Source of the DNA: Botryllus schlosseri
Lineage: Eukaryota
DNA length: 64,000 bases
Direction: 5' to 3'
Assembly: GCA_051294905.1 (NCBI GenBank)
Contig: CM119372.1
Span: forward strand, 24,740,001-24,804,000
This document shows positions 5,116-59,700 of this stretch, piece by piece. Both the position numbers and the translations under genes were made by a program. The first letter of the stretch is position 1. Each line of letters begins with the position of its first letter. The notes beneath the pieces are model-generated. The model did not search any database. It was given only the letters and a program-made list of their open reading frames with translations, and was not told the origin of the DNA.

Positions 5116-5600
5116 TAATGGAAGATTCCCAGCGTGTAGAGATGTTCCTTCTGGCGGCAGAGGATCGGCTTTTGCAGCTTTATAATGGTTGATTCAAGGA
5201 CCTTTAAATGAAAAAGAGAACGATCACGAGCAACTATGGAAAACTGATTGATATTGTAATGTTTTGCACACTCTGGGTGTTTCAATAGGTGCTGTCCGAT
5301 GGCAGAATTACATGCTGTTACTTGGTCATAATCATGCATGGTAACTAAGAGACTGTGATGATGAAGCAGACATGTCATCACCCTGCGAATTCCTAATTTG
5401 ACGTGGGACGTGCTGACGAATTCTTTGTTGCAAGCGTTGAGATATGCGACCCACATACCGACTGACCTCATTTGCTGGCGTTCACTGCTGAAGAGAGCCA
5501 GTCGAAAAGCTTCCAGTGGAATAAATTTAACAATATGAACGTATTGTTTGCTGCAATATTGAAGTTCTGTACTTCGAAAAGCCCATTCTATTGTTGTTCT
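5116..5600 (-). mobile_element. Penelope-like retroelement 3' fragment (GIY-YIG endonuclease) with inverted pseudo-LTR
   Basis: Frameshifted RYVGRISQRLQQRIRQHVP and SAIGQHLLKHPEC..FSIVARDRSLFHLKVLE..I...KPILCRQKE, typical of the PLE GIY-YIG C-terminus; 5461-5556 is an inverted copy of the downstream repeat (5052-5075 plus ~1767-1838). Confidence 0.8.
5474..5520 (+). ncRNA. Minimal type I hammerhead ribozyme, family 1 (Penelope pLTR)
   Basis: Stem I TTCACTG/CAGTGGA; core CTGAAGA (5488-5494); stem II GA-GCCAG-TC; GAA; palindromic stem III AAGCTT; cleavage-site C at 5513; upstream CTGGC complementary to loop II GCCAG. Confidence 0.8.
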
Positions 5601-5676
5601 GGAATATTTGAAGAGCTTATTACTGGAGGTACAGAACTTCGATATACAATTGCATAGAATATTCATATTGAAATGA

Positions 5677-5720
5677 ACCCGAACATTTTCGGCTGACACT
5701 CATCAGGGGTAATCGTCAGC
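5677..5720 (-). ncRNA. Minimal type I hammerhead ribozyme, family 2
   Basis: Minus strand reads GCTGAC-GATT-ACCC-CTGATGA-GTGTCAGCC-GAA-AATGTT-C-GGGT; lies within a ~140-bp repeat (~5620-5760) also present at ~8841-8935, 16280-16360 and 56329-56591. Confidence 0.7.
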
Positions 5721-7262
5721 AACTAGTAGAAAATTTGAAAGAACATTGTATATCAACACTCGTCACTCGTATCACAAAATATGACGCCACCAGCATGAAA
5801 TTTCGAATGAGAGAGCGTTCAATGTACTATTTTAGGTGGTACACGAACTTCCTCTGTTGACAGAGTTTGGGTTGGTGTATTTTGATCAAAGTCGACTCCA
5901 AGGCACACAAATGGAAGTGTGAACGGCAGTCGAACCGAAACTACCTCGTAATATTCCTAATTTAAGAATAACATAAAGACAGACAGACTGTTTTATTGAA
6001 CAAAATTGCAATAAAAATATAATACATGTTGCAGCGATACTATAGAATGTAAACGATAAGCGATACGATCCTTAGGGATTCCCGCAGATCATCCAGTCAG
6101 CTGCATTGATGGAGTACTAATTAAGCATTTTCAATTCGAGACCCGCGTCATAAATAAATTTAAAAAAAAAATAGGTTGGTAACCATATTGCAAATTTAGA
6201 GGTTTTGCAGACCACCGATTGATAACCACTGCATTGTGTCGACCATGACTTGCTAATTGCTAGTATGGATGAGGTGGTTTCAGTCTCATCGTCATGTCGT
6301 TTTTTTTGTGAGCACGCTGTTAGTAATGTCAAAGCCATTTTATAGCGAAGAATGGTGATACTGAAAGTGAGGCAATGATTCTTTGGGAAAACGATAAAGA
6401 TTTTAAAAATAAAATATTTCAAGCATTTGGAAATACAATAATGATATATATTTTCCGAAATCTGAAACCAGGTCGCAGGCCGCGTGTTGGTGAGCCCTGA
6501 TACAGACATAGGGTTAACAGGAAACAGAGATGGTCCGTTGCAATAAGTAGTTCTACTTTTTCGGAGAACTCAAGTGGGTTTTGCTGTGATTGCGAATTCA
6601 GACCACATCTACTTCTACTTAACAATTTCCTGTTTTTTTTTTTATGCAAAAGTATAGATCTAGTCTAGAATATCTGGACACCTTGGGATTGATTGCAAAT
6701 GATTGCTGATATACGAACTCAAATCAATACTAACAAAGCACATGCGTAATCGCCAGCACTGCACCATTTGGCAAAATTATCCATTTGATACACGTTCAAA
6801 TCAGTCCAATACTCGAATCATCATTCATCATTGACAGGGGCAAAATGAAATTGTACAATATTCATCGTACCAGGACCTATTGATCGCAATGACGTTCAAT
6901 AAATCACTTTATAGTAGGGACGCGTACAGGTACATCGCACATTGTGACAATGTTGTGGGTTGATCATGACTTCACAAATAAGTTATTTCCACTAACGTTC
7001 GTCGGTTTTGTACCTATACTGTTTGTTTTGTATGCTTCGATACGGTTTCACGGCTTCCGCAGTGGAAAATAGCATCGAAACTATAAATCCCGTTGTTAAA
7101 TAATCAACTTCCAGTGGCGGGTAGAATATATAATTCCAGTATTGGAAAAAAAATCATGTTTTACAACTGGACTCGAATCATTAAAATTAATACTCGATTC
7201 AGATTTGGAGACGTTCAGCAACTCTACTAGCGATGAGAATAAATTACTATGAATGGCCGGGA

Positions 7263-27361: not shown

Positions 27362-30300
27362 TGTTATGTTCTTGATCTTGTTTGAACAATAACTCAATAC
27401 GACGAGGTTGCAATACGAAATCAGTATATTTTACAGCAGTATGACTTTAAGGCAGCGACACGATCCAGAGTACAGATAAAGGAAAAGACCACGAGAGAAC
27501 AGAACACAGGGTATAAATACGAAGCACGACACACGAAGAAATAATGATTGGCGGTAATTACTAATCCTAGACAAATAAGAGTGAAACGATACCAACGTAA
27601 AAACACGAACATAACAGTCCTCCCCTGTAAGTTAAAGGGTGCAGGGCGATTCACGTTGGCCGGTAGAAATCAGTTTGTCTCCTATTTCTAACGGGGTAAC
27701 GTCTACCCGACGTACGAGCAGGACTAGCTGCAGGACGTTGTGCCCTATTACGAACCAATGGTTGCTCAGCTTGCGACTGTTGAGGCTGAGCAACTTCCTG
27801 TGTGGCTGTATCATTACTTGTGGAAATCAAGCGTGGCTGGAGTTGGTTTTTGTGCCTTCTCCAATACCCATGATCTGTTTTTATAATGTACACAACACGC
27901 CCCAGTATTTCCGTCACCACGCCAGCAACCCACTTTGGTCCGCTTCGGTAACTGCGAGCGTAAACCGAGGAACCAATCTCGAAATGAGTGACTGATTGTC
28001 TAGGCGTAACGGGTTTCGATTTGTCGAAGGGCGAGCACAAACTTAACAAATTGCGCGGCTGTCGACCATGTAAAATCTCGGCAGGCGTTTTCCAGTCTAT
28101 GCCCGGGTGCGGTGCACATCGGTACGTAGCGAGAAGTGTTTGGAGCGCGAAGTTGAGATCTTTTCCCCCGTCGCAATTTTTTATTAATCCAGCTTTTAAA
28201 GTCTGGACGAATCGCTCCGCTTCCCCGTTCGAGGCAGGGTGAAAAGACGGTGATACGATATGGCTGATTGCCTAATTAGAGCAAAACGTATCGAATTCAT
28301 TCGACGTGAATTGCGGCCCGCCATCCGTAACAATTGTTATGGGCAAGCCTTCAATAGAGAAGACTTCCCTCAAAGCGTTGACCACACACAAGGTTGTGGT
28401 AGAACCGACATTCATTACTTCAACGAAAGGATATTTTGAATGCGCATCGACGATGACAAGAAACATTTTATTGTTTATTGGACCTGCGAAGTCCAAGTGA
28501 ATCCGTTCAAAGCTTTCAGACGTTTTGGGCCATTCGCGATACCGACGATCAGGCGCTTTCATTACTTTGCGGCAAGCGTCGCAACTCTTAACGAGATTTT
28601 CAATGTCGCGATTAATGGAAGGCCATGCGATGTAACGTCGAGCCATCTGCTTCATTTTCGCGATACCCCAATGTCCTTCGTGCAACAATGATAAGACTCG
28701 CGAGCGAAGTGACTGCGGAATTACTACGCGCTGAAAACCATCAATATTGAGCATGACTATGTCTTCGTGCAGAGAAAGCGAATGTTTGCGAGTCGAAAAC
28801 CAAGAAAAATCATCAATGTGCGTCTTTGGATTCCAATTACCATGAGTGACAGATAATTTTACTAGTTTCATGGTTTTGTCCTTCAGCGTCGCGTCGCGAA
28901 TTTCATTGCGAGTTAACGGTAAGCCATCGAATGCCATATTAATAGCGTGAACGATCTCAGCGTTTTCACGAATTTCCCGTTCGTCAAACTCAGGGTCTGG
29001 ACCCTTTGGTAGGCGAGATGAACCGTCGGCGTTTCCGTGCTGATTAGTCGGTTTATAGCGAATATCGTATTGGTAAGCCATGAGCGTTAGTGCCCATCGC
29101 TGCAAGCGTTGCGCTGTAATCACGGGAATTTTCTTGTCTGGCGAGAAAATAGCTAAAAGCGGTTTGTGGTCCGTTACGAGCGTAAATTTTCTACCATACA
29201 AGAATTGACGAAATTTAGTGACTCCGTAAATGATTGACAGAGCTTCCTTCTCTATTTGAGAGTAGGATTTTTGCGAATCGGAAAGTGTTTTCGATGCGTG
29301 CGCGATCGGTCTCTCTTCGCCATTGTGCTCGATTGAGAGGACAGCGCCGATTCCGAATTGAGAAGCATCAGTTGACAAAATGAGCTGCTTGTTTACATCA
29401 TAATGAGCTAACTGCGTAGCGTCGATTACGTCGTTTGAGAATGCGAAAAGCTGCATCACAGTCCGCATTCCAAATGAATTCCGCGTCTTTTTGAAGAAGA
29501 CGGTACAAGGCAGCGGCTTTATTCGTGAAATTAGGAATAAACGCGCGATAATAATTGACTTTGCCCAGGAATGCCTGTAGCTGGCGAACATCCTGAGGTT
29601 TAGGCAACTGTTTGATTGCTTCAACGGATTTGTGAGACGGGCGTTTGCCGTCCTTGTCTATTATATGACCAAGGTACTCGATACTACTTTTGAAAAATTC
29701 ACATTTCGCGAAGTTGACGGTGAAACCGTACTCGGTGAGGCGCTCAAAGAGTAGCGATAAGTTGCGAAAATGATCGCGTTCATCAATGCCAGTAACGATT
29801 ATGTCATCGATAAAACTAGCAACACCGGGTAAGCCGGCGATCATGGCATCAATACAACGTTGAAAATTTGCGGGACTAGATGCGACTCCGAAACACATGC
29901 GTCGATAACGGAAAAGACCGAATTGCGTGTTTATGACACACAAATTCTTCGCATCATCATCTAATTCTAGCTGAAAATAAGCATCGGCAAGATCAATTTT
30001 CGTAAAAATGCAACCACCCTGTAACTTGTGAAGAATTTCATCTAAAGAGGGCAGGGGATGTTGATCTATCTGAATCTGTTGATTCAATGCTTTGAAGTCA
30101 CCACAAATGCGTACTGATCCATTTGATTTAGTGACGGCAACAATTGGCGCTGCCCAATCACTGTAATTGATTGTTTCGAGGATACCTTGATTGACTAATC
30201 TATCCAATTCGGTTTGAACAGCGATTTGCCTTGCGAAAGGCAAAGGGCGTGGCTTGTTGAATACGGGCTTGGCATTAGGTTTCAAGTGAATTGTCACCTT

Positions 30301-32121
30301 TGTCTTGGTGCATCGTCCTAATACATTAGAGAAAACGGAGGGAAATTTGGACTTAAAAGATACCAATTTGTCGTTCGAATCAGAAATGTCAATAGTATTA
30401 CAAGATTGCGATTTGACCATCTGCGAGGAAATTGCATCCAAAGCAGACGTTCCCTTAGCGGTCATGGAGAAAGCATCGCTCCAATCGAGACCAAAAATGT
30501 TTTGCCCACGGTGTTCGTCGAGAACCACCAATTTTAAGCCAACTTGAACTTCAGAACCCACCTGCACAGTTGCAGTGCAAATACCTTTCACTTTCAGTGG
30601 CTTGTCGCCGTACGCTACGAAAGAGCAATGGTATGCTGAGAGTTTCGGAGAGCCCAAAGTTTTGTACCCAGTCAATCCCACCATGGCGGAGGGTGCACCA
30701 GTGTCCCACTGTGTCGGCAACGGAATGCCGTTGATGCTGGAGTTGATCCAGAGCTGGTTTCCCACGCGTCGATATAGTTGATCGATGTCGAAGGAGAGGA
30801 GTGGCACTGAGCAGAAATTGACGGATGTGACCTGTTGTGTGACACTAGGTTTGGTAGACATGCACACAGGTTTGATATGACCTTTACGACCACATTTCTG
30901 ACATACTGCATGTCGATATTGACAGTCTTTTCTCTGGTGATCGATGAAACAGCGGCTGCAGGATTTCAGTCTTTCCGTGAAGTTGCCTTGGTTGGATTTG
31001 GAAGGTTTTTTCCCCTTCTGATAACTTCCCGTCATCTTGTTGACGACGGAAGTGCCTTTACCGCTACTCTCGCCTTGGATAACCCTATCAGTTTCCAGCG
31101 TTCTCACGTATGTTGCGGCTACTTTGAGAACGTCGTCAAGGGATGGATTGGTTTGTGTTAGACAATGCCGTCTCACATCCGCGTGCGGCGTTTCTTTAAT
31201 GATGAGATCGCGCATTAGCTCATCAACGCAGCTTTGATCACAGCCATCTCTTGAGCACGTGAAGTTGCAATCCTTGGAGATTCCGCGTAGAGTTGCGATC
31301 CAATCAGCGTATGACTGTCCCGGCTGCATTTTGCAATTGTAAAATTCGTACCTGGCTGCTTGCACATGAATTGAATCCTTGAAGTGTGTGGACAACTTCT
31401 CAGTCAACGCATCGAAGGTTTGCGCACTGACATCAGCAGCACCAAACAAATTACGTAGGAGCGAGTACGTTTCAGGTCCAACCCATGAGAGTAGACACGC
31501 TCTTTTCTTCTCCATGTTGGAAATGCCGTATATTGCTAGGTGATGGTTAAATCGCTGAAGATATTGGTCCCATTTCTCCTTTGATTTTGCGAACGAATCA
31601 AACTTGGGAGCGGTAGCTTCAGATGTTGACATACCGGGACTCAACCTCTGCGCTAATTGCGCCATTTCTTCTTTATGCTGTGCGCGTTGTTGGTCCAGAT
31701 CTTCTGTGCCGAGCATTTTGCTGCTCCAGCTGATCTTTTTGATTTGCGATTGTTTCATGTAGACTCGCCATCATTGCCTGCTGCTTCTCGAGCAGCTTCA
31801 ATATACCTGAATCCATGCTTAATATTCGTCGCAGAAATAACTTTGAATCCGACCTCTGACACCAATTGTTATGTTCTTGATCTTGTTTGAACAATAACTC
31901 AATACGACGAGGTTGCAATACGAAATCAGTATATTTTACAGCAGTATGACTTTAAGGCAGCGACACGATCCAGAGTACAGATGAACGAAAAGACCACGAG
32001 AGAACAGAACACAGGGTATAAATACGAAGCACGACACACGAAGAAATAATGATTGGCGGTAATTACTAATCCTAGACAAATAAGAGTGAAACGATACCAA
32101 CGTAAATACACGAACATAACA
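27362..32121 (-). mobile_element. Full-length Ty3/Gypsy (Mag-like) LTR retrotransposon, copy A
   Basis: 255-bp TG...CA LTRs at 31867-32121 (5') and 27362-27616 (3'), 3 mismatches seen; TSD ATCCT; PBS TGGTGTCAGAGGT; PPT AGGGGAGGA; gag-PR-RT-RH-IN order. Confidence 0.97.
27651..31816 (-). pseudogene. Disrupted gag-pol of copy A
   Basis: Versus copy B: 2-bp deletion in early gag (~31703), 2-bp deletion at ~29435, TTG>TAG stop at 28272-28274; DTGA, FIDD, TDAS, HHCC and DDE motifs retained. Confidence 0.92.
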
Positions 32122-32514
32122 ATCCTATTGATACAGTTGCAGATATTGCGAAACTGCATTCAGCCGGTCTGTAAATGTGTTCAAAATAAAAAATTATAAA
32201 ATAAACCACTCCTTCGCCTACTCACTGCTCTGAACCGATCCGACAACAGAATCAACTGTGAATAGCGATTCTGACAACTTTATCGGCAGGAAGGTATTCT
32301 TTGGAAATTTCGCCTGAATTTGGTAGCTCTTGGGATAGCGCTGCATTTCTACCTTCTTCGACAGACTATTCGTTTTCAAAAACGATATATTCACAAATTT
32401 CGACAAACGCGTTTCCATATAATATTGTGACGTTATAATGATTCTCGTAAAGCAATCGCAACTTGTGTCAAGAGTTCTGTATTTGTACCAATAGTAACTT
32501 AAATGAGTATTTAT

Positions 32515-32731
32515 TCACTCCGCTATAAAGAATCCTGAGAATGTTGTTGATGGCGACTGAAAGCCTTTGAGCGAGCCGGAATACGTTTGCAGCCACACTT
32601 CGTCCCCGGGATTTAGTGAGAGGACCACGGAGTTCGAAGATTGACTCTTGTCGTAGTAGCCCTTGCCGCTGTATTCCATACGTATCGAGATTGTTGATAC
32701 CCCATTGTGTATGAGTGCGGCGTGAACGAAC
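32515..32731 (-). CDS. Terminal exon, gC1q domain C-half
   Basis: FVHAALIHNG...SQSSNSVVLSLNPGDEVWLQ...TTFSGFFIAE* (C1q signature GDEVW and STFSGF); acceptor tttcag; AATAAA overlaps the TGA (32510-32515). Confidence 0.93.
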
Positions 32732-35700
32732 CTGAAATATATATACGCTCTAAGACAGTGCTTCCCGACCTTTTTCAGTTCACGACCTACTTTTATTGCA
32801 AGTTTTATTGCGCAATCCACTATGAGATATTATTACCCAATAATAAAAATATAAACGCGTTTGTCGCAACTTGAGATACCGATATCCCATACCTGTTTTG
32901 TTTCGACATCGTTACGAAGAACGCATAATGTCCCGGGAACTCTGCGGTAAACTTTCCGCTCGAAACGTCGTATCTTCGGCCGCGGTTTGAAAAGATCCTA
33001 TCAAATGTAACTGGACCACAGCATTTGAATGTTGTCACGAGTCCCACGCTAAACGCCGCCTGAAGCAGTATAATAGGATGCATTATATATTTGAAAAGTG
33101 TTCAGGCATATTCGAAGCAAGCGCCGAGCTGGTTCTGTTAGTCATTGAATATAAATATGAATATATCACAAATTAACACGGTACGGTTGGTTTTCATAAG
33201 CTATACTTGTATGTTGCTTTTGGCGATTTCTACTCTGCCATGAAGATGGATACCAGCTCATATATAGTTCTCGCATCGAAAAAAACTTCATCACTTTTCG
33301 AGTGTTATCAGTTGGCCTATCTCTGATCTCAAGTGGGCGAGGTAAAGGCCTATATGTGGATTATATACACAGAGGTGGTCACCAACAACGTACTTCCTCT
33401 TAATCCGAGTACTGAGATAGTTTTTGTATACTTGCAGTCCATACTCAAATGGTTGTGTTGTAAGAATATTTTAGATTCTGCTTAGCAGTTTTTTTGGCAA
33501 AATCACTAACTTTTTACACTTCAGATTATTTAAAGTAGAAAGTAGCGTTGTGATATGCTCGCATCGCTTTTATGAGTGAAATTGTCACAACAACTAGCGG
33601 ATAGAGTTAAATATAGTTTTGTAAATTGTACCTATCTATTTGTAGTGTCATTGGTCATTTTGAGTTAGTCGCGATCATGTACACTGCAATTTCGAAAGTA
33701 ATGACTCGATTAACCCTATTTTCAGATCTACGATTTCTACTTTAAGTAATTTTCACATTTGTTTAAAATCCCAACTATGACTGATTTGACCAATGACCAC
33801 CTCTTCGTATACTGTCACCGCTGATTACCGAGATTCTGACAGTTATAGATTTCTTGTCTGATAAGCCTATAATTACCTTACTTTGAAAGCACTGGGATGT
33901 CTGAATATTATTATAACGACGAGTAACAGCAATACTACAAACAGAACATGGACGATATGAAAATTGATGAAAATTGGGTAAGGTATTTATCAGAGATGGA
34001 TTTTTCTGTGGGAAAATTAGTAATAAAGTTGACATACAGCCAGTTCTTGAAAACCCGTGCAGAATAAACAAATAGGAATGTCAGTCCCACCTGTCCGCTA
34101 GCCGAAAAACGTGTTGTGGGATTTGTTTCGTTTCCGATTCCGCGAGCGGAATTTCGCATGTCTTCCACGAGATCAGTCACGTCGACCACTTCCTTATTTC
34201 TATTCTGTGCGCTGCTTGCGTATCTGACAATATGCATGCAATTAGGGTTGCATTTAAAACAAACGTTGCTTTAAAACACTTTGTTTATAACATGTTTTAA
34301 ACAGTGTTTTAAAAAAGGGCCTTTCTAAAAAAAATTGTGTTATTAGGTTGTAAAATTATGCCATTTTGTGTATATACTTTACAAAAAACATGTTGTATGA
34401 GCCTACGGACAATTACCACCCGATGTAGCCGACGTATATCGATATGGGATGGTTAGAACTCTCAAAATAGTCGGTTAAACAACAATAGTAGGCTACATAT
34501 ATATTTCGTCAAAGGAGCTATTTTTACCCTATATTTTCAATTATCCATGCCAATCCACTATGACGTCACAATGGAATATTCGTGACGCCATGGCTTTAAA
34601 AAAGCAAAAAAAAAAACAATAAAAACATGTTTTAAATTAGGGCCTTGTTTTAAATATGTTTGTTTTGAATTGATTTTTGTATTAAATGCAACCCTACATG
34701 CAATGGGAGACTGTCTTTAGTAAAGAGACAATGAGTTTTGGCCGTCAACTACACTCATATATCCAAACAAATATAAAATCATCCAAAATCAGTTTTAAAA
34801 GCATGTAAATACTATAAATTGGGATTATCAATTTAATGAATCTTGACTCCAATACAGTTAAATGGAATGTAGATCTACCGTTGAAAATCACAATGAGCAT
34901 GTCACTCATCACTGAAATTACTGTCCCAGAGTGTATAGCTCATTACATGTGACCAATGGAAGAATTTAATGATGTGCGGTTGTGTGAACGGAATGAGTGA
35001 AGCAGCGCGAGCCTGAACCTAAATCGATTATATCTGCCAATCGATCGCCCAGAGCTATCTCGTCGGTGTCGATAGTTGGCCAACTCTGTTTCATATAACC
35101 AAGCCACAGCATTCAATTCTACAATTGGTGAACCTTTAGCAAATACTATAAAGCGTGCCTTTATCCAATTAAAGCCATGGCATACAAATAGTCTATCATG
35201 TCGTATTCGGGGTGTAGAGCTCATTAGATATTAAGTCGACAACAACAAACGCCAGTTTTCCGCTTGAAAAAGTGGTGAATAAGGTCGACGCAAAACTAAA
35301 AAATTAAGGAATCAAAATTATAACTGTGGTATTGTTGGTGGTTCTATTATTTTTATGCGCTCAGGACACACAATATACGATGCGATGTAACGAACAGAAT
35401 GTCTAAATGACCATGTAGGTCTCCAATCCGCCCCCTCAGCCTAAGGCCCGATGTACCGTGTACGATATATATCTTATTTTTAGGCTTCCGTGTTCTTTTT
35501 ATTATCTTATTTGAAATCGTCCTTGGTCGAGAACCGGGCTTTTTTTGTAAGTGGGTGCAGCGAGGCAGGAGAGAGGCATCCACCGTCAATGGCGCTGGAA
35601 CGCCAACTCGACCACATATAGTAGCATTTGGGAAAGCGAAAGCTCGCCGCTCAGGGTATACTCAGAGTGCTAGGGTGCCGCGAATTATTTTCCCTTTAAG

Positions 35701-44700: not shown

Positions 44701-47700
44701 CCATGAAGACATATCCAAGAATGCCGCTGTTGACAGTTTTCGAATCGCATATGAAATCGATAAGTGTAAAATTAGAGCGGGGCGAAATCGAACCTGGCTC
44801 ATTCGATTCTGAGTCGAGCTTTGAGTCCAGTGTTCGAGTATAGCATTCATTAGACGCCATAAGAGTACGAACAAATTTGAAAGTTCTAATAGGTACCATA
44901 ATTGTGGCCACAAGGAAGATAATGACATTTACAATAATTTTATACCTCCTCGCTACGATCATTTCATCTCGCTTTGCTACTGTCGCGGGATGATCACACA
45001 TATGGATGTGAATTGAATACGCACCACTAAATATTCGTGAACTTTTGCTGAGTATGATGATATGATATGACCAATCGAGTTTTTAGGGCTGTCACGATGA
45101 GAAGAAAGTATTGAAAATATAATTCTCTTTGACAAAAACTGTTATGTTCGTGTATTTACGTTGGTATCGTTTCACTCTTATTTGTCTAGGATTAGTAATT
45201 ACCGCCAATCATTATTTCTTCGTGTGTCGTGCTTCGTATTTATACCCTGTGTTCTGTTCTCTCGTGGTCTTTTCATTTAACTGCACTCTGGATCGTGTCG
45301 CTGCCGTAAAGTTATTCTGCTGATAATATACTGATTCTGTATTGCAACCTCGTCGCATTGAGTTATTGTTCAAACGAGATCAAGAACATAACAATTGGTG
45401 TCAGAAGTCGGATTCAAAGTTATTTCTGCGACGAATATTAAGCATGGATTCAGGTATATTGAAGCTGCTCGAGAAGCAGCAGGCAATGATGGCGAGTCTA
45501 CATGAAACAATGGCAAATCAAAAAGATCAGCTGGAGCAGCAAAATGCTCGGCACAGAGAAGATCTGGACCAACAACGCGCACAGCATAAAGAAGAAATGG
45601 CGCAATTAGCGCAGAGGTTGAGTCCCGGTACGTCAACATCTGAAGCTACCGCTCCCAAGTTTGATTCGTTCGCAAAATCAAAGGAGAAATGGGACCAATA
45701 TCTTCAGCGATTCAACCATCACCTAGCAATATACGGCATTTCCAACATGGAGAAGAAAAGAGCGTGTCTATTCTCATGGGTTGGACCTGAAACGTACTCG
45801 CTCCTACGTAATTTGTTTGGTGCTGCTGATGTCAGTGCGCAAACCTTCAATGCGTTGACTGAGAAGTTGTCCACACACTTCAAGGATTCAATTCATGTGC
45901 AAGCAGCCAGGTACGAATTTTACAATTGCAAAATGCAGCCGGGACAGTCATACGCTGATTGGATCGCAACTCTCACGGAATCTCCAAGGATTGCAACTTC
46001 ACATGCTCAAGAGATGGCTGTGATCAAAGCTACGTTGATGAGCTAATGCGCGATCTCATCATTAAAGAAACGCCGCACGCGGATGTGAGACGGCATTGTC
46101 TAACACAAACCAATCCATCCCTTGACGACGTTCTCGAAGTAGCCGCAACATACGTGAGAACGCTGGAAACTGATAGGGTTATCCAAGGCGAGAGTAGCGG
46201 TAAAGACAAGATGACGGGAAGTTATCAGAAGGGGAAAAAACCTTCCAAATCCAACCAAGGCAACTTCCTGGAAAGACTGAAATCTTGCAGCCGCTGTTTC
46301 ATCGATCACCAGAGAAAAGACTGTCAATATCGACATGCAGTATGTCAGAAATGTGGTCGTAAAGGTCATATCAAACCTGTGTGCATGTCTACCAAACCTA
46401 GTATCACGCAACAGGTCACATCCGTCAATTTCTGCTCAGTGCCACTCCTCTCCTTCGACATCGATCAACTATATCGACGCGTAGGAAACCAGCTCTGGAT
46501 CAACTCCAGCATCAACGGCATTCCGTTGCCGACACAGTGGGACACTGGTGCACCCTCCGCCATGGTGGGATTGACTGGGTACAAAACTTTGGGCTCTCCG
46601 AAACTCTCAGCATACCATTGCTCTTTCGTAGCGTACGGCGACAAGCCACTGAAAGTGAAAGGTATTTGCACTGTAACCGTGCAGGTGGGTTCTGAAGATC
46701 GAGTTGGCTTAAAATTGGTAGTTCTCGACGAACACCGTGGGCAAAACATTTTTGGTCTCGATTGGAGCGATGCTTTCTCCATGACCACTGAGGGAACGTC
46801 TGCTTTGGATGCAATTTCCTCGCAGATGGTCAAATCGCAATCATGTAATACTATTGACATTTCTGATTCGAACGACAAATTGGTATCTTTTCAGTCCAAA
46901 TTTCCCTCCGTTTTCTCTAATGTATTAGGACGATGCACCAAGACAAAGGTGACGATTCACTTGAAACCTAATGCCAAGCCCGTATTCAACAAGCCACGCC
47001 CTTTGCCTTTTGCAAGGCAAATCGCTGTTCAAACCGAATTGAATAGATTAGTCAATCAAGGTATTCTCGAACCAATCAATTACAGTGATTGGGCAGCACC
47101 AATTGTTGCCGTCACTAAATCAAATGGATCAGTACGCATTTGTGGTGACTTCAAAGCATTGAATCAACAAATTCAGATAGATCAACATCCCCTGCCCTCC
47201 TTGGATGAAATTCTTCACAAGTTACAGGGTGGTTGTATATTCACGAAAATTGATCTTGCCGATGCTTATTTTCAGCTAGAATTAGATGATGATGCGAAGA
47301 ATTTGTGTGTCATAAACACGCAATTCGGTCTTTTCCGTTATCGACGCATGTGTTTCGGAGTCGCATCTAGTCCCGCAAATTTTCAACGTTGTATTGATGC
47401 CATGATCGCCGGCTTACCCGGTGTTGCTAGTTTTATCGATGACATAATCGTTACTGGCATTGATGAACGCGATCATTTTCGCAACTTATCGCTACTCTTT
47501 GAGCGCCTCACCGAGTACGGTTTCACCGTCAACTTCGCGAAATGTGAATTTTTCAAAAGTAGTATCGAGTACCTTGGTCATATAATAGACAAGGACGGCA
47601 AACGCCCGTCTCACAAATCCGTTGAAGCAATCAAACAGTTGCCTAAACCTCAGGATGTTCGCCAGCTACAGGCATTCCTGGGCAAAGTCAATTATTATCG

Positions 47701-50700
47701 CGCGTTTATTCCTAATTTCACGAATAAAGCCGCTGCCTTGTACCGTCTTCTTCAAAAAGACGCGAAATTCATTTGGAATGCAGACTGCGACGCAGCTTTT
47801 CGCATTCTCAAAAACGACGTAATCGACGCTACGCAGTTAGCTCATTATGATGTAAACAAGCAGCTCATTTTGTCAACTGATGCTTCTCAATTCGGAATCG
47901 GCGCTGTCCTCTCAATCGAGCACAATGGCGAAGAGAGACCGATCGCGCACGCATCGAAAACACTTTCTGATTCGCAAAAATCCTACTCTCAAATCGAGAA
48001 GGAAGCTCTGTCAATCATTTACGGAGTCACTAAATTTCGTCAATTCTTGTATGGTAGAAAATTTACGCTCGTAACGGACCACAAACCGCTTTTAGCTATT
48101 TTCTCGCCAGACAAGAAAATTCCCGTGATTACAGCGCAACGCTTACAGCGATGGGCACTAACGCTCATGGCTTACCAATACGATATTCGCTATAAACCGA
48201 CTAATCAGCACGGAAACGCCGACGGTTTATCTCGTCTACCAAAGGGTCCAGACCCTGAGTTTGACGAACTGGAAATTCGTGAAAACGCGGAGATCGTTCA
48301 CGCTATTAATATGGCATTCGATGGCTTACCGTTAACTCGCAATGAAATTCGCGACGCGACGCTGAAGGACAAAACCATGAAACTAGTAAAATTATCTGTC
48401 ACTCATGGTAATTGGAATCCAAAGACGCACATTGATGATTTTTCTTGGTTTTCGACTCGAAAACATTCGCTTTCTCTGCACGAAGACATAGTCATGCTCA
48501 ATATTGATGGTTTTCAGCGCGTAGTAATTCCGCAGTCACTTCGCTCGCGAGTCTTATCATTGTTGCACGAAGGACATTGGGGTATCGCGAAAATGAAGCA
48601 GATGGCTCGACGTTACATCGCATGGCCTTCCATTAATCGCGACATTGAAAATCTCGTCAAGAGTTGCGACGCTTGCCGTAAGGTCATGAAAGCGCCTGAT
48701 CGTCAGTACCGCGAATGGCCTAAAACTTCTGAAAGCTTTGAACGAATTCACTTGGATTTCGCAGGTCCACTAAACAACAAGATGTTTCTTGTCATCGTCG
48801 ATGCGCATTCGAAATATCCTTTCGTTAAAGTAATGAATGTCGGATCTACCACAACCTTGTGTGTGGTCAACGCTTTGAGGGAAGTCTTCTCTATTGAAGG
48901 CTTGCCCATAACAATTGTTACGGATGGCGGACCGCAATTCACGTCGAATGAATTCGATACGTTTTGCTCTAATTTGGCAATCAGCCATATCGTATCACCG
49001 TCTTTTCACCCTGCCTCGAACGGGGAAGCGGAGCGATTCGTCCAGACTTTAAAAGCTGGATTAATAAAAAATTGCGACGGGGGAAAAGATCTCAACTTCG
49101 CGCTCCAAACACTTCTCGCTACGTACCGATGTGCACCGCACCCGGGCATAGACTGGAAAACGCCTGCCGATATTTTACATGGTCGACAGCCGCGCAATTT
49201 GTTAAGTTTGTGCTCGCCCTTCGACAAATCGAAACCCGTTACGCCTAGACAATCAGTCACTCATTTCGAGATTGGTTCCTCGGTTTACGCTCGCAGTTAC
49301 CGAAGCGGACCAAAGTGGGTTGCTGGCGTGGTGACGGAAATACTGGGGCGTGTTGTGTACATTATAAAAACAGATCATGGGCATTGGAGAAGGCACAAAA
49401 ACCAACTCCAGCCACGCTTGATTTCCACAAGTAATGATACAGCCACACAGGAAGTTGCTCAGCCTCAACAGTCGCAAGCTGAGCAACCATTGGTTCGTAA
49501 TAGGGCACAACGTCCTGCAGCTAGTCCTGCTCGTACGTCGGGTAGACGTTACCCCGTTAGAAATAGGAGACAAACTGATTTCTACCGGCCAACGTGAATC
49601 GCCCTGCACCCTTTAACTTACAGGGGAGGACTGTTATGTTCGTGTATTTACGTTGGTATCGTTTCACTCTTATTTGTCTAGGATTAGTAATTACCGCCAA
49701 TCATTATTTCTTCGTGTGTCGTGCTTCGTATTTATACCCTGTGTTCTGTTCTCTCGTGGTCTTTTCATTTAACTGCACTCTGGATCGTGTCGCTGCCGTA
49801 AAGTTATTCTGCTGATAATATACTGATTCTGTATTGCAACCTCGTCGCATTGAGTTATTGTTCAAACAAGATCAAGAACATAACAAAAACCTGTTGGCGC
49901 CAAGAGCGTGACAAACCAACACTTACTTACATCACTATATATACTCCACTCGAATGATCGCAATTGATTCTCGAATCGTTGTGCCCGCAGTCCCGTGCTA
50001 ATACTAGGATTGCATTTAAAACAAAATTCAATTGAGGAGAAACATGTTTTACGCATGTTTTTTCAGTCATGACGTCACGAATATTCAATTGTGACGTGAT
50101 AGTGGAGTGACATTAACACTTGAAAATACAAGGTAAATACAACTCTTTTGAGGAAATGGGCTTCCAACCCCTGTCTTATACGGACCAGAAATATCTTCAA
50201 CTAGGGCTACATTATCTTGCAGCTTTTTTACGGTCGGCGGCCATCATCATCAGAACATTCATTCCGTACCAATGATGTATATCTATGTACTATAGGCCTA
50301 GCTGTTGAACCAACTATTTGGAGGGTTTGAACCATCCCATATGGTCGGCTATATCCGGATGGTAATCGTCCGTTGCCTAATACAACATGTTTTTTGGAAA
50401 GGATTTTACACAGTTATGGCATAACTATACAGCCGTAAAAAAATGTTTTGATAAAAAAGGCATATGTTTAAAGCACTGTTCAAAACATGTTTTAAACAAA
50501 GTGTTTTAAACAAACATTTGTTTTAAATGCAGCCCTAGCTAATACGCGTAGAAGCCGATCGAATATATTATCCGGTAAAAATCTGCAATCACCTTGGCAT
50601 TGTCCCTGATAACAGCGTTTCCGTTCTGCAGTTCTTCGACATTTTTACGAACTATTGCGCTTGTATTTTGTACCTCATTGATTTCAGTAAGAATACGCTG

Positions 50701-53700: not shown

Positions 53701-56700
53701 GCAGAGGAAAGCCTACTTGAGTGCTCCGAAAAGGTAACAGTGCTTCGTCAGTGACCACCTCTGTATGATTATGGTTGCTGCTATACGCATTCTGGTAGTT
53801 TGCCTGTGGTGTAAGCCAAAAGAGTTCTGAACCACTGTGGTAGTGTGCCGCGAACTATTTTTAATTTTCAAAGTGTGCCGCGAGGTCAAAAAGGTTGAGA
53901 ACCACTGACTTAACATATCTATTGTGACGTGGTGAGCCAATACAAAGTCACAATGTCTGGGTCTGGCCAAATATTCGCCACCGGATGCCCAAATTACCAT
54001 CATCCTGTCCATTGACAGAATAGTGCAAGCATATATGTGTTTGAGTTTAATTAAAACCTGTTTGGCCACCTACAGCATGCTTACATTGATTTTCATCCTC
54101 TTTTCAAAGATAAGGACACATCTTTTGAATGAGAGCGGTATGGCGACGCAGTATCTATACAATACACGGTATGTCTACAAAAAAATTTAATATATGTGTA
54201 AATTGTCAAAGAATTACACATTGCTAATGATCAATATCCGAATTCATCAAAATTTGTAAAATACGATCCAACAAATTATATGATGAGTTATCGAGAGTTT
54301 GTTGTATGATATTGTTACTAAGTCATGCCAGATGCCACGGGAATGTTTTACGGATGTTTTACGAAAAACACTGAGATATTTCAATTTGATGCTTATGGTA
54401 TACTCTCTTTGTAAAAATATATAACTCTGGACTTAGCAACCGAGGTCTACGGTATATGAGGATGATTGATTTCTTACACTTCCTACTTCGCTAAACATGA
54501 AATATTTGTCGTATGTGTTCTTGTGACAGAACATCAACCCTAATGTACGTGATATGATGAAAACTAAACTAAAATTTTCTATATGGTATATGGCAGGGGT
54601 GGCCAACCTGTGGCCGTACGGCCGTATGCGGCCGTAGAAGGTATTTTGTCCGGCCGTGCGCACGTAATTCAATCAGTATGTGTTGGCGGCCGTCGACATG
54701 CAATTTGAATTTACGAATTCAGTCCCGGTTTCTCGGGAGATTTTAATTATTCTTGAAATTTTCTTCGGCCTGCGCGCGATTCAATGTGACGTCATTTTCT
54801 ATTTAATATAGTAGCGCCCTTTGCAATCTGATCCCCACAGTACAGATGCCAACATCAGAGGGAAATGATGCGCCTCATAGAAATACCAACTCGAAATCGT
54901 GTGCTCCTCGCTATACCGACAACCCTGAAGGGATGTCAAGAAATTACAGCATGCAACAAGTGACTAATAACAATTGGCCCAGCCGAAGATGCATCATCAT
55001 TTATAATTTACCCTAAATTTTCGAAAAAAACTCCATTAACTATATCGGTGAGTCAGATCACGTGTGCTGAGAAGGGACAAATGTTTGATAGTAATATGTA
55101 AAACTACTAATATTAATAACGAAATTCATCAGAGAATCTGAAAAAAATTTAGCGCTTCGCGGGACTGTCCACAATCCGATAGCGTGACTCGCGATTTCGG
55201 TGCGTATAGTAGGCGTGTATGACTAAATAGATTAGTCCAAAGTGTACCGGAAATGGACATAGACCTTTTAACATGGGTATTTGGCGTCCAGCGAGTTCAT
55301 TGCGACTACGCCCTGGAATGCGGCCGTAGGCTACATGAGTGGTCGAAATGCGGCCGTGAATGGCAAAAAGGTTGGTCACCCCTGGTATATGGTGAGCCTG
55401 TGGCATGATAATAATCTTTCAGTTTTAGAAGTATGAAAAACGAAGGATTTGATGGACGCTATTACTCACTTTCTACGGGTTTCATTTCTCAAAGACTGGT
55501 TCGCTCTTACTAGCTGTCTCATTTTGCCTCGTAATGCGATGTTTGTGTATCTTACATTGCGCAGCATATTCGACAGTGCGCCTATGGTCGCTTTATTCAA
55601 GGCAACCCCTTCCTCCAATGATTCCATCCTGGAGCTCTGAGTTGTATTCATCTCACCAACGACGTCCAGTATACCTGCCAAAGCGCGGAAGAAAATCGAG
55701 CTATTCTTGAATAATTATATTCAAATCATCTATAAAAGTTCATTTCGATATGCGTGAAAATGTATATATATATTAGGGTTGTTCAAAAATATATTTTTTC
55801 AGATTTTCGCGGCTATAATTGTTAGGTTGGCTAAAAAACGTTGCACACCAAATTTGACTCTATTCCGACTAGTAGAAGCGAAACTATTAGAGTCGGAAAA
55901 ATTTGAATTTTTAATTACAAATTTTACTGTCTACCACATCGGATTATGCAGTAGTCTAATAAAACGGTACACAGCAAATTTGGCTAAATTTCAACTGGTA
56001 GAAGCGAAGGATTTGAAAAAAATGATATTTATTGTGGGTAATCCAACAATTTAATGAAAAACTCGAATAGATTCAAGTCTACGAGCTGGATTGAGTCAAA
56101 TTTGTTTTTTTTTTATAGTTTTCATACATAACTTTCAATTTAATGGGTTAGCCAGTCAAATTTGAAAAAAAAACATATTAAATTAAAAATTTTCAAACTC
56201 TATTAGCTTCACTTCTAATCATTGGAATTGATCCAAATTTGAAGTCCAACGTTTTTTTAGTAAACCTAACAATTTTAGCTAATAACCGCAAAAATCTGAA
56301 ACAAAAAGTTTTTGAACAATCCTAATATTTGAAGAGCTTCTTGGAGGTACAGACCTTCAATATACAATTGAATAGTATATTTACATTGAAATGAACCCGA
56401 ATATTTTCGGCTGACACTCGTCAGGGGTAATCGTCAGCATCTAGTATAGAATTGGAAAGAACATTTTATACATTGTAATACGATTGTTGATATACAATGT
56501 TCTTTCCAATTCTCTACTAGTTGCTGACGATTACCCCTGACGAGTGTCAGCCGAAAATATTCGGGTTCATTTTATTATGAATATACTATTTAATCCTAAT
56601 ATATCTAAATTATATATTGCTTCATATGCGCGTCGGTGTTCGTGCAATTCATAATATTTACTGACTTCCCGTCCTTGTCCAATAATTATATGTCTTTGGC

Positions 56701-59700
56701 GCGATCACATATATTTGGATGTAGGCCTACCGTGCATTAATACATAGCAGTAACAATAGCTCAGTGGTTTCACCGATAGTCTCGAAGACCAGAAGTCGTT
56801 CGGCTGTAGTCTTCACAATTTTGAAAATTGCATTCACCTGCTATACCTGCATTAACTTGCGGTATCACTTTGGCAACTACCCCATTTTGCAATCTTGAGA
56901 GAAATTCGTCACTATTCACTTGGTCAGACACTGAGATGATCTCATCACGCACATTGCGAATATCTCCTGTGGTGCGTTCTGACTGTAAACGAAATATGTA
57001 TCCTGCGTTTGACGTTTATGGCGTATAATTATGCTTTATACCAAAATATCGACTCGCCGCTTCAAGCTCCTCTGCTGTTGTAGCGAGTATTTATGAAAAC
57101 CGTTGATTCTTGTGTGCATTTTGTTAATGATTTTACGATACCTCGGAAACGTGGCATTGAGTCGAACCACGACGTTTGCAATGTCTTCATAGTTCCATAT
57201 CTAAATAGAAACTTTATTCTATGTATGACTTCTCGCGGTAACGCCAGTGTTTGTGTCATAAAGCACCGTTACACGAAAGATTCAGTGTTTATATTTATCA
57301 AATTTGAATTGTATAGAGAGTTACTACCGTACCGCTCGACAGGCTCTCGAATACGTGTTATTCGGGGTACGCGTACCTCGGTTAGGATACGCTTCCATAA
57401 AGGCAGCTAGCGGTGCTTATGAGCCTACACCGTATCGTTGTATAAATACATGAAACCCTATAGGATCTGGACAGTGATATTCAATCAATACCAGGCATTG
57501 CTCTGAAATCTTACTTCCCCTCCGATGCTGAAATTACTTGATGTTGTTCTTTTCCTGTTACGTCGTCGGTGCGCTGCAATATGTTGAGATTGTTCACACA
57601 TGGATATCAACGTGATATGTTAGTCAATTATTAGGCTTACTGGTAAAATCGGTTGCAGGGGCGGTCGCGGTTATGGATTTCGTTGGCCGGCTGCCGGCAT
57701 GTCTGTCCGGGGTCATGAATGCAGTTTCTTCGCTTGTTAAAAAATCTTCTGGATCTCTGCCTTCAGTAACAATAGAGGATATTGTACTATTGTAGTAAAA
57801 TTCGACAAGGTCATATATGTGGAAGTTTTGTGCTCGTATTGCGCTGATTATAATTGTATCCAGTACAGCCATATCAGAGGTCGGGAACCTATGGCTCGCG
57901 AGCCATATATGGCTCTTTGGCAAATATTTATAATTTTGTACAGAATTGATCAATATTGCATCGACTTGTTAGTAACTTTTCATCACAGCCAGAATAATTA
58001 TTCTCGTGGCAGTATGAACATTAGCGCTGTTCAAAAATAACTTTTTTTCCCGGATTCCAGCCATTCACTGATTAAATTGTCAGGTTACCATAAAAAACGC
58101 TGCACACCAAATTTGGTTCAATTCTAACAAGTATAGGACTCCGCAGATCCAATTAAAACTTTTAATTTATTAGGGAAAATTTATAAAAAAAATTTAAAAT
58201 TTTTCTGCCAACCCCATGAAATTGTTGAGCTGTCTTCAAAGACAATGCAAAACAAATTTGAGTCAATTCCGATCAGTAAGAAGTGGAGTTATGTCAGTTT
58301 TTCGATGATAATCCTCGGATTATCCTTGATCGGTAGATAATCGGAGGAATATCAACTAAAAACTCACATAACTCCGCTTCTACTGGTCGGAATTGACTCA
58401 AATTTGTTTTGAGTATAGTATAGTACAGTATATAGCACAGTGGTCGGGAACCTTTTTTGTATGAAGAGCCATATTGGCCCTATTTTTTCCATCTCAACTT
58501 CCAAAGAGCCATACATGTCCATAAAATGTTACGTCACAATCGAAAATTCGTGACGTCGTGGTAGCACTAATTCGAACGCACTACATGGAATTCTTCGTGT
58601 GCGCCATATTTCGTCTGTAAAAACTGGTATTTATTGTTCGAAAATAAAACTCGAAACGAGAGGTAAAGCACAGACGGGCAAAGCCTCAACATTGATAACG
58701 CAATTCATCGTAAGTAGCTTAGAATTTATTATAACCGATATTAATCGAATGTGACTGTCACACTGATTCCGAAAATCTAAATACCTATCGACTTCTTAAT
58801 TCTCAAAGTATTCGGCGGTAATATAACGTTGCGCTACACGCATACATTTTATCGCCAGTACTACACAGAGCTATACTTACCAATCAAGAACGTGGATTGC
58901 TATGGCATTGTTTGTAATTCGAGTTTGTAATTGTGAATTTCACATCCACAACAGTTCATTTCGCGTTTTGAAATGGGCGTCGCCATATCTGCTATGCTCT
59001 TTGATTAATCAACGTATCGCACAATTCAAGATTTCGAGTCGGGTGCATAGAATTCGCGAGTGATATTGGCCGCCGGTGTGACAGTATCTTAAATTTGATG
59101 ATTTTGAAAATAGGGGGTCCGAGCCTCTAAACCTGAAGACGGCATTGTCTTTACCTCTCAAAGACATGGTTATACTGTCACGAGAATAATTATTCTGGTC
59201 GTGATGAAAATTTAACAACAAGTCGTTGCAATATTGATCAATTCAGTACAAAAATGAATATTTGGCAAAGAGCCATATCTTATACCCAAAAGAGCCATAT
59301 ATGGCTCGCGAGGTATAATATATATAGTACATAGTATATTTATCAAGTATGCTTAGGACTCCGATACCGTAGTTGACAAAGCTACAATTACAAGATGTTA
59401 ATACAGACATCATACTAGACTAGACAATCGATATCCCAAAATATTTGTCATTTTGTTCGAAATTCGCTTGTGCTCCTTTTATCGGTTAAGATAAGATAAA
59501 AAATCGATTGAAAGATATTCATCGAGTTGGTGGTTAGTGGTTTTAGAATTGATGTAATAGGCAACGTGAGAAGGGAATACAGACCTCCTTAGTGACCTGT
59601 GCCGGGTATCGCGATAAGCAGCTAATGTTCGAGGTATGCTAACAATAAGTTTAGTGTTCCATTCGATGTGCAATTGTGCATCTCCGTATAATCGGTATTG

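Follow-up and report, generated by a model that had tools for sequence, protein, structure and literature searches.

The window analysed here is the whole 64,000-nucleotide stretch of the Botryllus schlosseri contig CM119372.1 (positions 24,740,001 to 24,804,000). Near 56 kb, an intron of an expressed minus-strand gene holds an older MITE-like repeat, and this repeat is interrupted by a 263-bp insertion made of two inverted arms of a Penelope-like element (PLE). The insertion is enclosed by a target-site duplication (TSD) of 11 bp, and a hammerhead-type motif is present in each arm. The features, in window coordinates, are the following.

55470..55674, minus strand: downstream host exon, to the extent of the RNA contig (X6 contig)
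55675..56837, minus strand: host intron holding the MITE-like repeat and the insertion (GT-AG; X6 contig)
55770..56328, no strand assigned: older MITE-like repeat with terminal inverted repeats, the insertion target (other copies 69-75% identical)
56318..56328, plus strand: left TSD copy, 11 bp, within the right terminal repeat of the MITE
56329..56470, minus strand: tail-bearing arm, a 5'-truncated PLE 3' end, reference 2551-2692 (BLAST to the full-length unit L093)
56329..56367, minus strand: 39-nt PLE tail, on this arm only, within the first codons of the PLE ORF
56395..56438, minus strand: hammerhead motif copy 1, type I minimal (cut predicted from the consensus between 56399 and 56398)
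56471..56472, no strand assigned: head-to-head junction, two non-reference bases (same junction at one other locus, L176)
56473..56591, plus strand: tail-less arm, a 5'-truncated PLE 3' end, reference 2533 to ~2651-2654
56523..56566, plus strand: hammerhead motif copy 2, type I minimal (predicted cut after 56562)
56592..56602, plus strand: right TSD copy, 11 bp
56838..56982, minus strand: upstream host exon (X6 contig, in-frame join)

The host intron is defined by a spliced contig of run X6, which joins 56836-56982 to 55470-55672 and holds exons at 61.5-61.7, 57.0-57.2, 56.84-56.98 and 55.47-55.67 kb. The intron boundaries (55675-56837, minus strand) are GT-AG and the exons join in frame, and the tail-bearing (minus) arm of the insertion is sense in the host pre-mRNA. 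The earlier note had placed the insertion in an intron of a C1q gene; the intron and its expressed minus-strand gene are confirmed, and the C1q label is plausible. A Pfam scan of 145 frames gave C1q hits at 32518-33101 on the minus strand, ~23 kb downstream of these exons, and minus-strand open frames occur in between. No transcript joining the studied exons to the C1q exons was seen, and homolog searches with the two exons, aimed at a link to the C1q domain, found nothing. The chain of minus-strand open frames at 32518-61700, coiled-coil-like by eye, ends in two C1q exons and is possibly one long gene.

The target of the insertion is the right terminal inverted repeat of the ~560-bp MITE-like repeat. 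When the insert is removed in silico, the right end of the MITE matches its left end, and the terminal motif is found without the insert in three of the six other MITE copies examined. Because these insert-less MITE ends match, the duplication behaves as a true TSD. The MITE-like repeat itself has 3,258 first-look candidates in the genome, the best other copies being 69-75% identical.

Identical 11-mers at 56318-56328 and 56592-56602 flank the 263-bp insert, in agreement with the TSD claimed by the earlier note. The claim of two identical 44-nt hammerhead-type motifs in inverted arms of ~100 bp is equally borne out: the inverted arms (56367-56470 and 56491-56594) are 104 nt long and 92% complementary, and contain a perfect inverted block of 51 nt (56389-56439 and 56522-56572) that includes the 44-nt motif. 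Aligned with a 2,692-bp PLE unit, the insert runs from 2692 to 2551 on the minus strand, continues through two extra bases, and then runs from 2533 to ~2651-2654 on the plus strand. One arm thus ends at the PLE tail and the other 39 nt earlier, at an inner end. With the 3' end of this unit, which has an open 848-aa frame, the arms share 95-98% identity. The insert had been described as ORF-less, and this is true of the insert itself but not of its origin, since the arms correspond to the 3' UTR and the first codons of the PLE ORF. At 7 of 96 sites the two arms differ, and the 51-nt core is spared throughout (post hoc P 0.004). Because of these differences the insert is taken to be an older copy.

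That the structure is an assembly artefact, a chimeric inversion, has a next to negligible probability. Among the contigs listed none crosses the hairpin centre, as an artefact would allow, but the arms differ at those seven sites and end at two distinct biological sites, and the TSD encloses the whole insert. Contigs of run X5, from another sample and study, enter the insert from both unique flanks by 22 and 16 nt, overlaps that fall below the 31-letter bridging threshold, and dozens of like structures with differing junctions exist. The X5 contigs also suggest that the insert is common to another sample; no empty allele was present among the joints listed.

The source element was reached from a second copy in the window by following the sequence upstream, via coding sequence of RT and GIY-YIG type, to a tandem array on contig C16 with a 2,692-bp period, which forms a pseudo-LTR-type arrangement. 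Its unit has an open 848-aa RT and GIY-YIG frame with a Pfam match to RVT_1, and DKG, YVDD and GIY-YIG-type motifs were read by eye. The GIY-YIG domain was unscored by Pfam on the family's own ORF; PF01541, presumably the GIY-YIG domain family, is carried by 2 of 120 homologs among those listed. The motif that passages of PMC8557442 give for the Penelope/Poseidon clade was recognized by eye in the PLE ORF. The ribozyme sits directly 5' of the PLE start codon, and the final 56 nt of the tail-bearing end already belong to the ORF, as its first codons. The family displays the features of endonuclease-bearing (EN+) PLEs, namely tandem or pseudo-LTR copies, an inverted 5'-truncated copy, a one-sided tail of 39 nt and a TSD. 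The earlier suggestion that the insert is PLE-derived therefore holds, both arms being 3' ends of a young Penelope/Poseidon-type element. The 35-nt ribozyme core has 3,327 exact copies in the genome, against 0 for the reversed control, and the insert matched at least 84 places in the 40 candidates scored out of 1,669.

The array on C16 (L093 and L094, G000:C16:20,948,000-20,961,000) is very young, with open frames and units that are 99.9-100% identical. Its inverted left part is broken by another sequence, and a similar break is found in L097 at reference 2187/2196. The second copy in the window (5597-5927, minus strand) is a solo, 90% identical, with the tail end; it lies tail to tail with a diverged PLE-like 3' end at 5472-5582 on the plus strand (70%).

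The 44-nt motif contains the full hammerhead core with a 4-bp stem I, a stem II of one G-C pair (G10.1-C11.1) closing a 7-nt loop, and a stem III that is a 2-bp palindrome. Core, G10.1-C11.1 pair, short stem I and palindromic stem III are those of a type I minimal hammerhead, and loop II can pair with the 5' flank in 7 of 7 positions. Pseudoknotted hammerhead variants with a short stem III have reportedly been described, by Lunse et al. in 2017. No Rfam hammerhead match to the motif was obtained at the gathering score or at E up to 10, and the ribozyme call therefore rests on motif and context; minimal hammerhead variants were set by custom descriptors according to part of the text of PMC4209133. 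The hammerhead of the diverged PLE-like sequence, a motif at window 5465-5515, retains the pairings of stem I and loop II as well as the stem III palindrome through compensatory changes (one example). Among the reads listed none ends at the predicted ribozyme cut, and 5' truncations of the arms do not pile up at the cut site (1/27).

According to computed folds, the antisense arm would sequester the predicted sense ribozyme, as the earlier note had supposed and as is thermodynamically expected: the sense core pairs with the antisense arm at a mean probability of 0.996, and the arm duplex is at -98.7 kcal/mol versus -10.5 kcal/mol for the motif folded alone. The hairpin is predicted to be stable on both strands (-163.7 and -154.5 kcal/mol).

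The insertion pattern of the family was assessed in an unbiased sample consisting of the 100 exact matches to the core that come first on contig C1, all of which were fetched, yielding 85 insertions. Tail/no-tail head-to-head pairs account for 37 of the 85, a share that is over-represented as either arm of a pair can match; they span 119-3,026 bp, and 14 are of 350 bp or less. The remainder comprises 20 tail-end solos, 21 inner-site solos, one ambiguous solo and six others, and tail/tail or inner/inner pairs are absent from the 85. An antisense arm is lacking in 42 of the 85. A mixed set of 91 pairs contains 83 tail/no-tail, 3 inner/inner, 2 tail/tail and 3 ambiguous pairs, the like-ended ones being mostly old or of uncertain ends. 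The 5' ends of solos, inspected by eye in 47 rows, showed at most one tiny hidden second arm. TSDs of 12-13 nt are found in 14 of 19 young pairs and abut both 3' ends, and copies containing the ORF are bounded by the same ends and TSD lengths as the short ones.

Either arm of a pair may be the longer one. Of the 37 pairs, 19 have the longer arm on the tail-less side and 18 on the tail side; this comparison was not taken from loci chosen for their likeness to the insert (59 versus 22 in the mixed set). In some young copies whose TSDs are intact, the tail-less arm exceeds the tail arm by 186-825 nt. Arm lengths lie within 30 nt of each other in 16 of the 37 pairs, against 4.4 expected (0 of 20,000 permutations). 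The two arms of an insertion also share a haplotype, with a divergence of 0.28% within insertions (35 of 12,663 sites, 29 young pairs) versus 1.15% between them; in L100, 19 variants are common to both arms and none is discordant. L027 and L131, judged to be segmental duplicates, were left out of the haplotype comparison, L131 being kept among the 37 pairs. Fifteen young junctions were scored without inserted bases, and 11 of them show microhomology of 2-4 nt, against ~17% expected; the count is rough in that a mutation near a junction scores as inserted bases.

The earlier note had considered the insert a non-autonomous, retrozyme-like mobile unit, i.e. a short hairpin transcribed and re-inserted whole by the PLE protein, and this is quite improbable. 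Such mobility would account for the locus L176, 19.7 Mb away in unrelated flanks, whose breakpoints and two non-reference junction bases are identical to those of the insert. Hairpins with a spacer of 65-95 nt, as in this insert, number 62 (35 loci were examined for breakpoints), among 114 pairs three breakpoint combinations are seen 3-4 times each, and passages of PMC3846280 indicate that Penelope pLTRs can mobilise sequence in trans. However, only two loci in the genome match the junction pattern of the insert, and they have no private variant in common beyond it. At L189 the junction sequence of L188 and L190, which neighbours that of the insert, is found with the tail on the opposite arm; this junction therefore seems to have arisen repeatedly and independently, at a hot spot of microhomology, although one round of copying as a unit may still lie behind L176. 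Sizes form a continuum between 119 and 3,026 bp, with arm lengths reaching near full-ORF size; 103 of the 114 breakpoint pairs are distinct, and the same ends and TSD lengths bound the ORF-containing copies, so that a separate non-autonomous unit is not supported. TSDs of their own, which the earlier note expected of such a unit, are indeed found on short copies, but also on every size class. An initial impression that the junction was unique, from a 33-nt pattern that with one mismatch hit the window only, was discarded when a shorter pattern found L176.

The back-to-back structure and the dual opposite-strand hammerheads are already in print. Passages of Craig et al. 2021 (PMC8557442) describe an adjacent inverted 5'-truncated copy and a one-sided tail of 30-40 bp as typical of PLEs, of an origin left undefined there; Arkhipova et al. 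2013 (PMC3846280), in part of their text, document pLTRs in inverted orientation that carry a tail and a TSD, and antisense self-priming is what they propose. A section of Cervera and De la Pena 2014 (PMC4209133) reports pairs of minimal hammerheads, 100-700 bp apart and on opposite strands, and finds the single motif inactive. As far as excerpts of PMC2377424, PMC3846280, PMC8557442 and PMC11167929 describe EN+ PLEs (D. virilis Penelope, A. vaga Pen2a, Anolis PAc), they resemble the Botryllus family in an ORF of ~840 aa with RT and C-terminal GIY-YIG, in tandem arrays, 5' truncation, inverted 5'-truncated copy and TSD, and in a one-sided tail of 30-40 nt and a ribozyme adjoining the ORF start. 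Unlike in these elements, the insert is minimal, with two arms of ~120-140 nt without the ORF body, and the Botryllus family is very abundant and young; its TSD peak is at 12-13 nt, versus 8-10 in A. vaga in the same excerpts. The Cercyon PLEs of Schistosoma, as covered by parts of PMC4209133, have the same dual arrangement of type I motifs with short helix I and palindromic short helix III, but a helix II of 7-8 bp, whereas here it is one G-C pair with a 7-nt loop that can form a pseudoknot with the 5' flank.

Metazoan non-LTR retrozymes, according to sections of bioRxiv 10.64898/2026.07.22.740005, are likewise small and non-coding, with a type I hammerhead and a relation to PLE pLTRs. Their units are repeated head to tail in tandem and are thought to yield circular RNA, in contrast to the head-to-head insert with its variable breakpoints and PLE priming ends. 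A tandem non-LTR retrozyme is thus ruled out by the arrangement of the arms. In L1 twin priming, both target nicks prime on one RNA and an inversion results inside the TSD, the inverted piece being upstream, non-overlapping sequence. In the Botryllus insertions, on the other hand, the starts of the two arms are no more than 39 nt apart and the arms overlap completely, giving a hairpin.

The insert is best explained, with a probability of about 0.86, as one retrotransposition event of a young endonuclease-bearing Penelope/Poseidon-type PLE, in which two 5'-truncated cDNA arms were left head to head as a dead-on-arrival by-product that has no function itself. Its anatomy and the comparison with the family establish its identity as a PLE by-product; it is the shortest form of the known back-to-back PLE insertion and not a new kind of mobile ribozyme element. 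The mechanism is deduced from finished insertions, and dual priming followed by joining, taken on its own, stands at about even odds. In this scheme the RT-EN protein would nick both target strands, 11-13 bp apart; priming would start from one 3'-OH at the outer start site (the tail end) and from the other at the inner site, 39 nt further upstream, with a single template molecule or a single source transcript serving both. Microhomology might then join the resulting cDNAs at their 3' ends, or, alternatively, the longer cDNA may fold back and its copy anneal to the other primed cDNA. An anole PLE protein cuts and extends both strands in vitro, and its RT starts at two sites bounding the tail, according to portions of Frangieh et al. 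2024 (PMC11167929). Since the ribozyme adjoins both start sites upstream, a double insertion with arms longer than ~110 nt carries two inverted hammerheads, and as the antisense comes first on either strand, each predicted ribozyme would be sequestered. The double ribozyme and its sequestration follow from the geometry of insertion, and no selection is needed.

The same PLE debris may also have arisen from a single priming event with fold-back or self-priming, the tail asymmetry coming from later endonuclease resolution. This reading, considered rather unlikely, accounts for the shared haplotype of the arms, for the excess of near-equal arms and for the junction microhomology. Fold-back from the tail predicts, however, a longer tail arm, which is true of about half of the 37 pairs (18), and it does not fit the much longer tail-less arms (by 186-825 nt) of young copies with intact TSDs, nor the solos, which end at either site about equally (20 versus 21). 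As the arms are of one haplotype and either of them can be longer, priming at two nicks is favoured over a single fold-back. Part of the length and haplotype pattern could stem from material lost later at the centre of the hairpin, or from conversion of one arm by the other, and the identical junction at the unlinked L176 must be explained as recurrence if it formed de novo. That the insert's own arm differences all lie outside the core also fits simple neutral decay poorly.

In its full form, the dual-priming model would have every double insertion use the outer RT site at one nick and the inner site at the other on a single template, the 39-nt offset providing the overlap for joining, so that the tail would be a device for second-end attachment and the hairpin a routine product. 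This is a tentative proposal, held at a little under even odds. No dual-priming model for PLEs was found in the literature searched, of which subscription papers were mostly outside the scope. Taken alone, the locus is unremarkable intronic debris of a retrotransposon, and its value lies in the statistics of the family, which, with thousands of young copies, intact ORFs and a pair of sharply defined 3' ends, allows the formation of the PLE inverted repeat and one-sided tail to be tested. No special function has to be invoked for inverted ribozyme pairs bounded by TSDs in such genomes, and these should not be classed as new retrozymes.

A role for the host, with the hairpin kept for its benefit or harmlessness by silencing an intronic ribozyme and feeding ADAR or Dicer, is very improbable. 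The predicted stability of the hairpin on both strands and the core pairing probability of 0.996 are consistent with such a role, as are the apparent presence of the insert in another sample and the lower frequency of arm differences in the core (8.8% versus 11.7%, 27 pairs, P 0.018). This core bias is, however, small and open to ascertainment, and may reflect ascertainment, base composition or repair between arms; identical cores occur in 4 of 27 other pairs. The insertion mechanism by itself produces the geometry, an antisense arm is missing from half of the insertions of the family, and lone minimal PLE hammerheads are inactive or protein-dependent in passages of PMC4209133 and PMC11167929. 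The earlier argument that the insertion is tolerated owing to sequestration is therefore unneeded. Reads over the insert come from the whole family (in run X23 the depth is ~104 per strand, versus <1 on the flanking bins), so none could be assigned to the locus for editing or small RNA. Set against the other transitions, A>G counts over the stretch do not exceed those of the DNA-like run X5, and no sign that the hairpin serves the host was found.

Several neighbouring structures were observed in the family and in the window. At L170:1100-2010, a head-to-head pair lies inside the ribozyme of an older copy, its TSD being ribozyme sequence, and is followed by six to seven 77-bp tandem units that extend from the 3' half of the ribozyme to the tail. 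The head-to-head junction of L174 (G000:C1:22,181,665) contains a stretch of ~56 nt in which short words repeat, apparently a product of slippage. At L091:1949-2386, about ten tandem copies of a 44-bp ORF piece occur at the 5' truncation point, which suggests repeated template slippage. Two LTR-retrotransposon-like elements with gag, RT, RNase H and integrase frames and near-identical terminal repeats are found in the window at ~27,600-32,150 (minus strand) and ~45,100-49,850 (plus strand), the second lying between the studied exons and the C1q exons. A tRNA gene with a long variable arm (Rfam RF00005) is located at 382-463 on the plus strand.
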